A DNA stretch of 64,000 nt from Chryseobacterium sp. Its GTDB lineage: Bacteria; Bacteroidota; Bacteroidia; Flavobacteriales; Weeksellaceae. The stretch is from assembly GCA_039594975.1 (NCBI GenBank), contig JBCNMJ010000001.1:20402-84401 (forward strand). Reading direction: 5' to 3'. The notes beneath the pieces were generated by a model that saw only the letters and a list, made by a program, of their open reading frames with translations, was not told the origin of the DNA and made no database searches. Made by a program: the position numbers and the translations under genes. Position 1 is the first letter of the stretch, and each line of letters begins with the position of its first letter. Below, piece after piece: positions 18,191-19,957 of this stretch.

Positions 18191-18329
18191 ACAAGGCAAC
18201 AATCAAAAAGCGTAATGTCGTGCTCTAACCAACTGAGCTACTTTTCCTATATCATTTTGTGTTTTATGGTGGAAAAGACGGGAATCGAACCCGTGACTCC
18301 GTCGTGATGAGCGAAGTAACACTATTTTA
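18191..18329 (-). ncRNA. Y-RNA-like unit B (YrlA-type circularly permuted tRNA)
   Basis: ACAAG/CUUGU closing stem; order T arm (ACGGG UUCGAUU CCCGU), loop-closed acceptor stem (CUUUUCC/GGAAAAG), D arm (GCUCAGUUGGUUAGAGC). Confidence 0.85.
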
Positions 18330-18348
18330 CGGCACTTGTTTCTATCTT

Positions 18349-19188
18349 TTAAATTTCTTCTTCAGCAATAAATGTTTTTACAATCGGACTTACCGTTGTT
18401 CCTTTTGGATGATAATTCATACCGAAACTTGACCAGCCCGAAGACCAATAGAGCATCATTTCTTTAAGATAGGGAACATCCTTAGTTTCATCATATTTAA
18501 AATTCTTATCAAATATTTGTTGGATTTCTGGTAATACCTCAGGATAAAACATCTGATCTTCTTCATCAAAAACGTATTCATAAATATCAAGATGATTCCT
18601 AATTTCATTCAGCAAATAAGTTCTGAAATCCCAACCCACCACAATAATATCTGAACCCCAACTGGAAATTATCGGTTTCCATTTTAAATTATCGTCACCT
18701 ACCACGAAGCGGTGGTTGTAAATTGGCAAAAGTTGTGGAATTTTAGAAAACCATTCTTGAAAAATTTTTTCCCTTTCTTCTTTGGATGATGGTTTTTTCC
18801 CCCATGATTTCAGCCAAACCTTATTAAGCCCTTCAACATCCGAATAAAACCAGTCCGAAAGACCATGAAGCCTTTCCACGATTTCCTGTTCATCTACCAA
18901 CCAATTATAAAACCATGTGCTTTCTTCAAAAATCACCACATCATTTTCACCATTATACTCTATGATTTCTTTCTTATCAATGGCATGAAGGATTTTTAAG
19001 AATTCTTTGTGTTCATTATTAAATTTTACGCCATACTTCTGTTCAACTTCATCAATCTGTGGCTCTGTAAGAGGCTGCCATTTTGCACTATAAAATTCAT
19101 GCTCGCGCCAGTCTTCACTCGCCCACAGGTTTTCTGTACGTTCTCTTACCCAATATAAGAAATCAGTTAAATTTTCAGGTATAATCAT
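18349..19188 (-). CDS. SMI1/KNR4 (SUKH)-like protein
   Basis: PLTEPQIDEVEQKYGVKFNNEHKEFL N-terminal SUKH-like signature; LLPIYNHRF. Confidence 0.65.
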   Translation of the reverse strand: MIIPENLTDFLYWVRERTENLWASEDWREHEFYSAKWQPLTEPQIDEVEQKYGVKFNNEHKEFLKILHAIDKKEIIEYNGENDVVIFEESTWFYNWLVDEQEIVERLHGLSDWFYSDVEGLNKVWLKSWGKKPSSKEEREKIFQEWFSKIPQLLPIYNHRFVVGDDNLKWKPIISSWGSDIIVVGWDFRTYLLNEIRNHLDIYEYVFDEEDQMFYPEVLPEIQQIFDKNFKYDETKDVPYLKEMMLYWSSGWSSFGMNYHPKGTTVSPIVKTFIAEEEI

Positions 19189-19226
19189 TGTATTACAGGA
19201 TTTCTAATTTTTTATATATAAAACAG

Positions 19227-19446
19227 ATAAGGTAAAAGGCGAAAAAGGTGTGCTCTTTTCAGAGCGCCGCTCTTACCCGATTTGGGCAGTGAGCCGGCAA
19301 TTCTACATCTGCGAGAGACTTGCGCTTTTTTACAAAAACTTTTGCCAAGTTGGTTTTCAACCCAACCTCACTAGTTCGGTCGCCCGAATTTCGCTACCTT
19401 AGGACCGTTATAGTTACGAAGTAAACGTTTTCTACGGCACTTATCT
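19227..19446 (-). ncRNA. Y-RNA-like unit C with a 23S rRNA-like insert
   Basis: GAUAAG/CUUAUC closing stem, GUGCCGU...UUACUUCG motif, then 33 nt identical to the conserved 23S H69-H71 sequence. Confidence 0.75.
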
Positions 19447-19462
19447 GCAAATTTTTAAATAA

Positions 19463-19576
19463 AAAAGAGGCAATAGACGAAAAAACTCTTTATATAAACC
19501 ATTTTCAGATCTATTCTGGAGTCGAACCAACATCATAAGATTAACCGAAGTAAGCTTTCTCTAACGGCACTCTTTT
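19463..19576 (-). ncRNA. Y-RNA-like unit D (T arm plus closed acceptor-like stem, no clear D arm)
   Basis: AAAGAG/CUCUUU closing stem; GUGCCGU...UUACUUCG; UGG-UUCGACU-CCA. Confidence 0.75.
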
Positions 19577-19584
19577 ATTGTTCA

Positions 19585-19726
19585 ATCAAGGTAATAATTA
19601 TGGAATCTTCCGTGCATTTGCTCTACCGTCTGAGCTACTTCTCCTTTCCGAGGGAAAAGGCAGGAATCGAACCTGCGACCCAATGTTTACTCAATCTCGA
19701 AGTATGATTCTAAAACGACACTTGAT
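19585..19726 (-). ncRNA. Y-RNA-like unit E (YrlA-type circularly permuted tRNA)
   Basis: AUCAAG/CUUGAU closing stem; GCAGG UUCGAUU CCUGC, CUUUUCC/GGAGAAG, GCUCAGACGGUAGAGC in permuted order. Confidence 0.85.
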
Positions 19727-19751
19727 TTTTATTTTTAATTAATTATTTTAA

Positions 19752-19823
19752 AATCGAGCAATTTTTAAAAAGAGATTTAAATTCAATGTAAAGTAGAAGT
19801 AACTCTTTTTTACGGCATCGATT
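19752..19823 (-). ncRNA. Y-RNA-like unit F (minimal)
   Basis: AAUCGA/UCGAUU closing stem; UGCCGU, AAAAAGAG/CUCUUUUU stem, UUACUUC; short AU-rich loop. Confidence 0.7.
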
Positions 19824-19830
19824 AATTTTA

Positions 19831-19957
19831 AGTAAGGTAAAAAATCAAACAGAACTTGTGTACAGCACGTTGCCGATTACGCCATCCAAATTTTGGAACA
19901 GGATTCGAACCTGTATAACTGCCCCTAACGAAGTAACTCTATTTTACGACACTTACT
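19831..19957 (-). ncRNA. Y-RNA-like unit G (permuted tRNA with short acceptor stem)
   Basis: AGUAAG/CUUACU closing stem; ACAGG UUCGAAU CCUGU; UCCA/UGGA; GCGU-AAUCGGCA-ACGU. Confidence 0.8.

Follow-up and report, generated by a model that had tools for sequence, protein, structure and literature searches.

Known bacterial Y RNAs

Bacterial Y RNAs are RNAs bound by Rsr, the bacterial ortholog of Ro60. Their YrlA class (RF02553), present in Salmonella Typhimurium and other bacteria, lies near rsr on the same strand and runs from a 5' Ro motif through a YUAY motif and V region, a T arm and a closed acceptor-like stem to a D arm; this layout, the GNCGAA and YUAY motifs and the presence of at least two Y RNAs per locus have been described in work with a set of 254 species (Chen 2014; PMC4201824). 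The crystal structure of YrlA (6CU1) is L-shaped (10.1101/312249), its Levitt pair alternates between G15:C48 and A15:U48, and it receives pseudouridine 55 and dihydrouridine from TruB and DusA (PMC4201824). In Mycobacterium smegmatis, RNase P cleaves YrlA, and the addition of CA gives the 5' piece a complete CCA end (PMC4201824).

A second, less uniform arrangement is known from the rsr locus of Deinococcus radiodurans, where several small RNAs (Yrn1, Yrn2, RNAs a, b and d) and a tRNA-Asp adjoin rsr and arise from a polycistronic precursor (PMC4201824). Some of these RNAs have a T arm only, and that of Yrn1 is non-permuted (PMC4201824), as in units D and A below; Yrn2 is unstable in an rsr deletion (PMC4201824). 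Y RNAs of the YrlB or Yrn2 type are short hairpins that carry the Ro motif and no tRNA part.

The locus presented here, from a Chryseobacterium chromosome, has nine small-RNA units on the 3' side of rsr (18043-20209, minus strand, within the 64-kb stretch of DNA that we call the window). Our preferred reading, to which we give a probability of roughly 0.7, is a nine-gene Y RNA array in which a conserved, predicted Rsr-binding helix is combined with variable effector modules. As a bacterial Y RNA system of the known kind it is unusually large, and it is apparently undescribed. Compared with D. radiodurans it has nine units, a uniform Ro helix and, in some units, a full permuted tRNA body. Like YrlA, the array lies near rsr on its strand, units B, E and G have the YrlA order of elements, and the D and T stems of B and E are those of YrlA (GCGGG/CCCGC or GCAGG/CCUGC; GCUC/GAGC). 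Several features differ from the YrlA systems: the Ro motif reads GYCGUA, follows an invariant bulged U and has a well-paired 3' strand, whereas in the Salmonella and M. smegmatis YrlA the 5' strand of the Ro site alone is recognisable; there are three tRNA-like paralogs per locus instead of one; the Rfam YrlA score is half of the gathering score; an Rnl2 ligase takes the place of rtcBA/rtcR; and the Y RNAs stand downstream of rsr, not upstream as in M. smegmatis. Units F, H and I can be likened by layout to YrlB and Yrn2, with three such hairpin paralogs in one locus.

The locus and the array

The rsr product is recognised by Pfam TROVE (E 2e-29) and vWA_Ro60, both above their cut-offs, and is 84-94% identical to its orthologs in 80 Chryseobacterium/Epilithonimonas loci. 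Against the NCBIfam Rsr equivalog it reaches 28 bits where 900 are required, which marks it as a divergent Ro60. The units, delimited by the long-range pairing of their ends (unit C was paired by hand), lie 0.9-3.1 kb 3' of the rsr stop codon on the same, minus strand, within the distance of about 4 kb used elsewhere to define same-strand proximity to rsr (PMC4201824). The original prediction had drawn attention to the interval from the 3' end of unit B to the 5' end of unit G (18191-19957) and had taken it for a series of the YrlA kind; with rsr 0.9-4.6 kb upstream on the same strand and with the covariance-model matches described below, that assignment stands.

The pairs I-H, G-F, E-D and B-A are separated by just 6-7 nt. 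Such gaps are too short for a promoter, so that each of these blocks must share a precursor. The array also encloses an open reading frame of 279 aa whose similarity to Pfam SMI1_KNR4 (E 0.0075) is under the cut-off; it stands directly 5' of unit B, in the same place, in 17 of the 80 loci. The surroundings form an island with the Rnl2 RNA ligase, DEDDh exonucleases and a tRNA array. Of the two effectors PNPase and RtcB, neither is encoded adjacent to rsr, and PADLOC assigned rsr, ORF230, ORF279 and the ligase to no defence system.

Table 1. Features of the rsr locus, from 5' to 3' along the minus strand. Positions are those of the window; classes of the units are predicted.
Feature	Positions	Strand	Basis	Elements within the feature
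rsr (Ro60 ortholog, 505 aa)	21107..22624	-	Pfam TROVE and vWA_Ro60	
Unit I, 72-nt hairpin-type Y RNA	20138..20209	-	stem AACCGA-U-GC / GC-UCGGUU	
Unit H, 84-nt hairpin-type Y RNA	20048..20131	-	stem AACCAA-U-GU / AC-UUGGUU	
Unit G, class-I-like permuted tRNA body	19830..19958; core 19866-19919	-	R1, covariation	T arm 19914-19898; 5-bp closed stem 19897-19885; D arm 19882-19867; 4-nt variable loop
Unit F, 72-nt hairpin-type Y RNA	19752..19823	-	stem AAUCGA-U-GC / GC-UCGAUU	
Unit E, YrlA-type Y RNA	19584..19727; core 19619-19681	-	R1, Rfam YrlA, covariation	T arm 19676-19660; 7-bp acceptor 19659-19653 / 19644-19638 with 8-nt closing loop; D arm 19635-19620
Unit D, partial tRNA body	19463..19576	-	R1 14.7 bits, E 0.004	4-bp T arm 19530-19516; 7-bp closed hairpin 19514-19494; no D arm
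Unit C, 224-nt Y RNA, array member outside the tRNA-mimic series	19224..19447	-		34-nt 23S rRNA copy 19386-19419
ORF of 279 aa within the array	18349..19188	-	weak SUKH-1/SMI1 similarity	
Unit B, YrlA-type Y RNA	18189..18341; core 18221-18299	-	R1, Rfam YrlA, covariation	long V arm; T arm 18294-18278; acceptor CUUUUCC 18277-18271 and GGAAAAG 18247-18241, perfect 7 bp; ACCA 18270-18267; 19-nt linker 18266-18248; D arm 18238-18222
Unit A, T arm in non-permuted layout	18043..18182	-	R1, T arm only, 11.1 bits	T arm 18100-18086

A shared terminal helix

What unites the nine units is the pairing of their ends. Each is closed by the same type of stem, 6-8 bp long, with an invariant bulged U followed by G-C, Y-R and a single-stranded CGUA; the stems differ in sequence between units, yet each stays complementary. 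The feature by which the end helix of a bacterial Y RNA is recognised, a conserved Ro-contact sequence on its 5' strand, was found in nine of nine units. When 132 distinct stem pairs from all families were considered together, 92.6% of cells were paired, against 68.5% after shuffling, and none of 500 shuffles reached the observed value; cells in which both partners had changed numbered 301 where 89 were expected, and controls with slid partners were 21-53% paired. U7 is invariant, and G8, C10, G11, U12 and C19 are conserved to at least 90%.

The 5' motif was matched six times (0.01 expected) and GGTTCGANTCC 15 times (2.05 expected). A 26-nt 5' motif is common to all units; the UUACUUCG motif, which corresponds to YUAY and the start of the V arm, is missing from unit H. 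The units carry G-Y-C-G-U-A followed by an A/G-rich run, which agrees with the YrlA sequence GNCGAAN0-1G at five of its six defined places and has U for A at the fifth; unit I reads GCCGUAAG. We infer that the terminal helix is the predicted Rsr-binding site and the local version of the GGUCCGA or GNCGAA site of other Y RNAs. The repeated motif (AAGUGYCGUA...GUUACUUCG) was also considered as a local hairpin before each tRNA-like part; this was rejected, its 5' half pairing with the distal, covarying 3' strand.

Permuted tRNA bodies in units B, E and G

In B, E and G the V region comes first, followed by the T arm, the closed acceptor stem and the D arm. This order was examined with R1, a covariance model built solely from genuine tRNAs, circularly permuted, and scanned over the whole window. 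Its best three matches were B (52.2 bits, E 5e-16), E (42.7 bits, E 1e-12) and G (34.6 bits, E 6e-10), all full-length and in the permuted order of YrlA. In the ortholog alignments of all three units, RNAalifold predicted T, acceptor and D arms that include compensatory pairs: 8 of 35 pairs were compensatory for B, 9 of 29 for E (n = 38), and 15 of 34 predicted pairs for G (n = 35). All three carry U8, A14, G18, G19, A21 and a UUCGA T loop; B and E have G15:C48 as the Levitt pair, read from the ortholog alignments, and G has A15:U48. Every nucleotide needed to keep a tRNA L-shaped is present. The permuted layout first noticed in these units is thus upheld by the top three R1 matches and by covarying helices, and the placing of the Ro stem at the anticodon-loop position was likewise borne out.

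At the gathering score Rfam finds no Y RNA in the 64-kb window and no YrlA in eight further loci; ARAGORN and Rfam tRNA find no contiguous tRNA gene over 18000-20300; and folding energies of single units are unexceptional (z-scores -0.8 to -2.5). Below threshold, Rfam YrlA (RF02553, gathering score 69) gives local matches to B (35.1 bits) and E (33.9 bits) that span consensus positions 23-85 and include the near-invariant YrlA D- and T-stem sequences. Unit G, with T stem ACAGG/CCUGU and D stem GCG/CGC, has no RF02553 match even at E<=10.

Origins of the tRNA bodies

The original prediction had supposed that the bodies came from different tRNAs, captured independently. For B and E this does not hold: between the two, identity is 85% in one half and 81% in the other, while the best of 199 neighbouring tRNAs reaches 78%. 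Their acceptor strands are GGAAAAG and GGAGAAG, and acceptor variants are common to both ortholog families; this shared acceptor sequence, in two classical YrlA-type paralogs, argues that they were not captured separately. Both also match the pan-bacterial Rfam YrlA model, and we place them as paralogs within the classical YrlA lineage. The suggestion that B is Asp-like was not sustained either, since Phe, Arg, Lys and Ile came top among the 14 class-I isotypes of the neighbouring tRNA array with which it was compared. Unit G is a second, class-I-like design, tRNA-like and not YrlA-like, which may have been acquired separately or may be a paralog that has diverged. Its nearest neighbouring tRNA is tRNA-Arg(UCU), with 86% identity in the T half and 60% in the D half. 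No convincing donor for B, E or G was found among the neighbouring tRNAs, with 14 class-I isotypes compared.

Partial bodies, hairpins and an rRNA-like module

Units A, D, F, H and I were described correctly from the start: D lacks a clear D arm, A has its T arm in another context, and F, H and I have no tRNA part. The minimum free energy fold of unit D contains both of its hairpins, and its helices show compensatory changes in five pairs. In unit A the T arm directly follows a long interrupted hairpin and is enclosed by GGGG...CCCC; 15 of the 29 pairs in its ortholog alignment (n = 34) are compensatory. Units F, H and I have no T or D arm and no R1 match, and neither does unit C give one. F and I are 82% identical across 45 nt, and the minimum free energy fold of I retains the terminal stem (z -2.5).

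The module of unit C is of another kind and holds a 34-nt copy of 23S rRNA, 100% identical to nt 1910-1943 of the annotated E. coli 23S rRNA gene; the remainder of the unit has no further significant 23S rRNA similarity. In RNA runs this copy is overlain by rRNA contigs at depths in the thousands.

Conservation across the genus

Comparison was made across 80 Chryseobacterium/Epilithonimonas rsr loci; the scan found 475 further Rsr-encoding genomes. The array was found in all 76 loci with enough downstream sequence (2-12 units each, median 7), in each of them near rsr and on its strand. Each unit forms its own orthologous family, present in 17-71 of the 80 loci; orthologs of I occur in 49 loci, of H in 53, of F in 35, of D in 54 and of C in 17. 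The units of the window have only the motif and the arms in common, so their duplications are old. These patterns indicate that the units are old paralogs, each under selection throughout the genus.

Transcription and processing

Contigs from RNA runs of related organisms in Logan cover 19539-19961 at a depth of 2-7, at which DNA carry-over is possible; transcription of units D-G is probable, and the contigs show no ends. Searches for signals in the DNA gave little. A sigma-70 promoter scan found 14 sites against 19 in shuffles, terminator-like matches were mostly the T arms themselves, and a search for the Bacteroidetes -7 box yielded one candidate, 36 nt 5' of unit G, with no excess over chance.

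Unit B resembles the M. smegmatis YrlA in its 7-bp stem, discriminator and C74; it differs in that the whole ACCA is encoded in the window, and its own processing is inferred. The seven acceptor pairs are present in 66 of 66 B orthologs and are followed by AC in 65 of 66 (the corresponding stem of E keeps seven pairs in 53 of 70 orthologs, and its 8-nt loop in 55 of 70). The encoded CCA of B, once singled out as a feature that processing might expose, proves not to be conserved: of the 66 orthologs, 9 have ACCA, 52 have ACA and 65 have AC. By analogy, unit B, with its 7-bp acceptor, discriminator A, C74 and linker of 10-27 nt, is probably cut by RNase P. Following the M. smegmatis precedent, such a cut, trimming and completion to CCA would yield a two-piece RNA.

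A two-module model and its alternatives

Under the preferred reading, each RNA would be built of two modules: its 5' and 3' ends pair into a conserved terminal helix, and a variable part would act as effector. This part is, for B, E and G, a circularly permuted tRNA body from which the Ro helix exits at the position of the anticodon arm; D and A retain only part of such a body, and F, H and I would be YrlB-like hairpins. Rsr would grip the helix, while the tRNA-shaped module could engage proteins that recognise tRNA, among them RNase P and the enzymes that modify tRNA; nucleases that target tRNA, or repair factors, may be further partners. Engagement of such partners may serve to tether or gate Rsr.

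The tRNA parts could instead have been taken independently from different isotypes in B, E and G, and also in D and A, each serving as a decoy for another tRNA-cleaving toxin, an idea for which something can be said and which we nevertheless think improbable. Relative to B and E, unit G has another T stem, D stem, variable region and Levitt pair, and it has no YrlA match; B has a long V arm where G has a 4-nt variable loop; a piece of 23S rRNA is also carried within the array (unit C); and the island holds genes for the Rnl2 ligase and exonucleases as well as a tRNA array. In print, YrlA has also been proposed to inhibit an anticodon nuclease competitively (PMC7790460). Yet B and E have acceptor, D arm and T arm in common and resemble one another more closely than either does any neighbouring tRNA tested, no donor for G appears among the neighbouring tRNAs compared, and a module without an anticodon loop is unable to present the usual cleavage site. 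We consider it very unlikely, too, that a single functional YrlA (unit B) was duplicated locally and that its copies have progressively shed the tRNA part. The R1 scores do fall stepwise (52, 43, 35, 15 and 11 bits, then none) and the 26-nt 5' motif is common to all units, as a decay gradient would have it. The unit types are nevertheless distinct families found in 17-71 of 80 loci, in the same relative order where coordinates were checked (e.g. L001); the helices specific to D, A and G show compensatory changes in 5, 15 and 15 pairs; and the window's units have just motif and arms in common, as after old duplications. Separate orthologous families with compensatory changes make the "grades" of the original prediction maintained designs, each conserved in its own right, and not stages of decay.

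Another explanation dispenses with Rsr: the terminal helices might be processing signals, for instance for a double-strand-specific RNase, that release small RNAs acting without it. Units only 6-7 nt apart do need to be cut from their precursor. A processing stem, however, needs neither the invariant bulged U nor the GYCGU kept in nine families and 80 species, the 5' motif looks like the strand that contacts Ro in known Y RNAs (PMC4201824), and the array follows rsr in all loci examined, which together leave this account little room. Unit B alone might be taken for a two-piece, permuted tmRNA-like RNA or a split tRNA gene and not a Y RNA. In permuted tmRNA, as in B, the tRNA-like domain is circularly permuted in the gene, its T arm and acceptor 3' strand being followed by CCA, a linker and the acceptor 5' strand; the ACCA of B is encoded in the window, and Rfam tmRNA_permuted (RF04321) scores 27.4 bits over T arm, acceptor stem, CCA and linker. 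That match is under the gathering score of 47 and concerns the tRNA-like part only; B has neither a tag reading frame or other mRNA-like part nor a pseudoknot region, its D arm is complete, ARAGORN reports no tmRNA, ACCA is confined to those few orthologs counted above (9/66), and the ends of B form a Ro-type helix as in the other eight units. We therefore regard the tmRNA-like origin as barely credible, and the two-module Y RNA array remains the preferred reading.

Implications

To our knowledge, work on bacterial Y RNAs covers three species, each of which has two to five of them. The genus examined here keeps 2-12 of them per locus (nine in the window) on a uniform scaffold across about 80 species. 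Since these RNAs fall below the threshold of the Rfam YrlA model, Y RNAs of Bacteroidota are probably unannotated in genomes.

A more speculative view, which we think improbable, is that the array is a panel of uncleavable mimics of translation RNAs (several tRNA bodies that lack anticodon loops, and 23S helix 69) on an Rsr scaffold, acting as toxin decoys or sensors. The ribotoxin-decoy idea fits the gene neighbourhood and has been put forward before as a hypothesis (PMC7790460). If it were true, toxins would be titrated, or toxins or their damaged targets would be passed to Rsr-linked decay and repair, in the setting of a conserved RNA-damage island with its Rnl2 ligase, DEDDh exonucleases and spare tRNA array.

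Returning to the array as a set of Y RNAs, its designs include at least two distinct tRNA-like ones, partial ones and one rRNA-like module. Because this diversity of design is conserved over about 80 species, it offers natural variation and hence a ready-made comparative system, in which the ligands of the tRNA-like modules, the module-specific partners of Ro60 and the spread of RNase P and CCA processing could be addressed.

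Ro60 locus and unit definition

The 505-aa protein encoded just upstream of the array can be identified as Rsr, the bacterial Ro60, because it carries TROVE and Ro60-vWA domains. It is 84-94% identical to proteins from 80 Chryseobacterium/Epilithonimonas genomes. With 28 bits against 900 it is remote from the NCBIfam Rsr equivalog, which makes it a divergent family member. The stretch of tRNA mimics lies 1.1-2.9 kb downstream of rsr on the same strand. A Flavo-1 RNA motif (RF01705, function unknown) is found antisense past the rsr stop codon (20971-21059, plus strand), and one lies 50-700 nt beyond that stop in the window and in five of eight other loci scanned (L010, L021, L030, L032, and L078).

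Eight copies of a 24-26-nt motif, RGUGYCGUA-N-GUUACUUC, lie between 18153 and 20205 on the minus strand (for a stricter form, 6 matches vs 0.01 expected), and the T-arm sequence GGTTCGANTCC occurs five times within the array stretch. Formation of a local hairpin by the motif was ruled out: the pairing partner of its 5' half (N6-8, U, G, Y, CGUA) is a strand (R, C, N6-8) lying 70-225 nt away, which differs in sequence from unit to unit and is complementary in each. This long-range pairing of ends defines nine units, I to A (see table); the interval of the original prediction, 18191-19957, runs from the 3' end of B to the 5' end of G. In YrlA RNAs the variable-arm region begins with a conserved YUAY, and UUACUUCG, the motif's second half, is this element (PMC4201824; 10.1101/312249).

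The terminal helix was evaluated in 132 distinct sequences, with both unit ends taken by ortholog-alignment column and not by complementarity. Pairing was found in 92.6% of cells vs 68.5% after shuffling, a level reached by 0 of 500 shuffles, and double changes occupied 301 cells vs 89 expected; when the partner was shifted by 1-3 columns, pairing fell to 21-53%. The bulged U is invariant, and conservation reaches 90% or more at G8, C10, G11, U12, and C19. The units share a sequence-specific bulged helix, which resembles the helix that binds Ro in animal Y RNAs and whose 5' strand, GYCGUA, is one letter off the bacterial GNCGAA motif. Five viral or proviral IMG/VR contigs (L081-L085) also contain exact matches to the 5' motif of the Y RNAs together with the start of the V arm, AAGTGYCGTA-N5-12-TTACTTCG; three of the matches are in L083.

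Features of the rsr region: Y RNA units with ortholog loci (of 80) and RNAalifold pairs with compensatory changes
Feature	Position	Strand	Ortholog loci	Compensatory pairs	Description
Unit A	18043-18182	minus	55	15/29	Long interrupted hairpin directly 5' of T arm, enclosed by GGGG...CCCC
Unit B	18189-18341	minus	66	8/35	Long V arm, 7-bp acceptor stem, long linker
279-aa ORF	18349-19188	minus			Inside array, just 5' of B; weak SUKH-1/SMI1 similarity, below Pfam cut-off
Unit C	19224-19447	minus	17		34-nt 23S rRNA copy at 19386-19419
Unit D	19463-19576	minus	54	5/22	T arm and one hairpin
Unit E	19584-19727	minus	71	9/29	7-bp acceptor stem, 8-nt closing loop
Unit F	19752-19823	minus	35		
Unit G	19830-19958	minus	43	15/34	4-nt variable loop, 4-bp anticodon-stem analogue, short closed stem
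Unit H	20048-20131	minus	53		
Unit I	20138-20209	minus	49		
230-aa ORF	20252-20944				Between rsr and array; without counterpart in other loci
rsr	21107-22624	minus			505 aa; TROVE and Ro60-vWA domains
DEDDh/KapD-like 3'-5' exonuclease genes (two)	29354-29902, 29928-30503	minus			Upstream of rsr
Rnl2-family RNA ligase	30831-31847	minus			Passes NCBIfam equivalog cut-off
DinB_2 (DinB-family protein)	31852-32415	minus			Upstream of rsr
RNase H-like protein	32888-33373	minus			Upstream of rsr
tRNA array	33733-35997	minus			11 tRNA genes, different isotypes

Permuted tRNA modules in units B, E, and G

A permuted-tRNA covariance model was built from 25 genuine tRNAs of the window array and related loci, cut at the anticodon arm and reordered as variable loop, T arm, acceptor 3' strand, GAAA, acceptor 5' strand, and D arm. 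Its top three matches in the 64-kb window are B (52.2 bits, E-value 5e-16), E (42.7), and G (34.6). Each of these matches runs over the full length and forms the acceptor helix, which confirms the permuted layout that had been noticed in these units. D scores 14.7 bits, A matches by its T arm alone (11.1 bits), and no match was found in F, H, I, or C; the remaining matches join one array tRNA's T arm to the next tRNA's D arm, with the acceptor helix dropped. The elbow nucleotides U8, A14, G18, G19, and A21 and a UUCGA T loop are found in B, E, and G alike. As the Levitt pair, B and E have G15:C48 where G has A15:U48, an alternation likewise reported for YrlA RNAs (PMC4201824). Single-sequence folding energies of individual units were unremarkable.

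The Rfam YrlA model scores 35.1 bits on B and 33.9 bits on E, in both cases at positions 23-85, the tRNA-like part, and short of the gathering score of 69. Support for the earlier assignment to the YrlA type of Y RNA extends to B and E and, by architecture, to G.

Shared descent or repeated capture, decay or maintenance

The tRNA bodies had been proposed to be independent captures. For B and E this is contradicted: identity between the two is 85% across the acceptor/D half and 81% across the V/T/acceptor half, whereas the best match of 199 neighboring tRNAs reaches 78% for a half. Their families draw on common acceptor variants (GGAAAAG, GGAAGAG, or GGAGAAG over CUUUUCC or CUCUUCC), and both carry D- and T-stem sequences nearly invariant in YrlA of other phyla (PMC4201824). 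B and E are therefore duplicates inside the YrlA lineage. The Asp-like appearance ascribed to B rests on a T arm general to YrlA RNAs, and Phe, Arg, Lys, and Ile score best among the 14 class-I isotypes compared. G has little in common with B or E beyond universal tRNA positions and is not detected by the YrlA model; no donor was found for it among the 199 neighboring tRNAs. G may have been acquired separately, or it may be a copy that has diverged strongly.

A gradient of decay was ruled out: each unit has its own orthologs, unit-specific helices with compensatory changes were recovered for A, B, D, E, and G (see table), an array of 2-12 units (median 7) comes after rsr in every one of the 76 loci whose sequence extends far enough, and units within the window have only the motif and arms in common. 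The "grades" are therefore old designs, each maintained separately. Unit A is in natural order, not permuted, and its T-arm layout recalls D. radiodurans Yrn1. B contains the hexamer CACGAC twice (18195-18320, minus strand), once in the loop of the V arm and once immediately behind the D arm, and orthologs keep both copies; together with AAAACAC in the linker, they may be protein-binding or processing signals.

Unit C is 100% identical over its 34-nt copy to nucleotides 1910-1943 of the annotated E. coli 23S rRNA gene, a segment that comprises the loop of helix 69, the 3' strand of this helix, and the strand after it. A short GNRA-capped hairpin follows where the rRNA has a longer one. C would be a Y RNA in which an rRNA-like module takes the place of the tRNA-like one.

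Transcription and processing

The gaps I-H, G-F, E-D, and B-A measure 6-7 nt, which leaves no room for every one of these units to have its own promoter, so that they must be cut from a precursor, as are the Y RNAs of M. smegmatis and D. radiodurans. Transcription of 19539-19961 is suggested by its coverage at depth 2-7, without ends, in contigs of related organisms (four public RNA runs). Promoter and terminator scans were uninformative. The array's upstream half has a single long gap (89 nt), and in it, 36 nt 5' of G, is a Bacteroidetes-type -7 box, TAATTTTG (19994-20001, minus strand); the box is a possible internal promoter, though no more than chance gives.

The CCA noted in B is encoded in the window (CUUUUCC-ACCA, 18277-18267) and is not conserved. 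Among 66 orthologs, all have an acceptor stem of 7 pairs and 65 have AC next; the letter after that is A in 52 orthologs and C in 9. On this conserved AC, the CCA is a local accident. The linker measures 10-27 nt and has AAAACAC conserved inside it. In M. smegmatis YrlA, a 7-bp stem makes an RNase P substrate whose end is completed to CCA after cleavage (PMC4201824). The 7-bp stem and an end suited to CCA completion are kept in the B family, and B may reasonably be supposed to be processed into two pieces.

Gene neighborhood

An RNA-metabolism cluster (29354-33373, minus strand) lies between the tRNA array and rsr, from which it is separated in the window by an inserted TonB receptor and LytTR two-component system. 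Homologs of the cluster genes, among them the ligase and the exonucleases, are found again upstream of rsr in 14-50 of the 80 loci, as are tRNA arrays, which are present in many loci (199 tRNAs in total). The neighborhood is similar to the RNA-repair operon rsr-yrlBA-rtcBA but has Rnl2 where that operon has RtcB. Bacterial tRNA-Leu is expected to have a long variable arm; the window array includes 75-nt "tRNA-Leu" genes without one, as well as a degenerate, uncalled tRNA-like sequence at about 34610-34682. Just past the tRNA array are bpX0, bpX1, and bpX3 domain genes (MoxR-vWA-beta-propeller ternary system; 37917-41982, minus strand). The 279-aa ORF holds the same position in the window and 17 of the 80 loci. 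Downstream of the Y RNA array (15559-18047) are an opposite-strand HTH (Cro/C1-type) gene, recurrent there in 15 loci, and genes for a CesT/YbjN-like protein, PspA/IM30, and an unknown membrane protein.

Implications

No description of such arrays was found in the searchable literature, and the Rfam YrlA model misses at threshold this array of nine Y RNA units built on one scaffold. Since YrlA has already been proposed to inhibit an anticodon nuclease competitively (PMC7790460), the original suggestion that the tRNA-like modules may act as toxin decoys is a legitimate idea.
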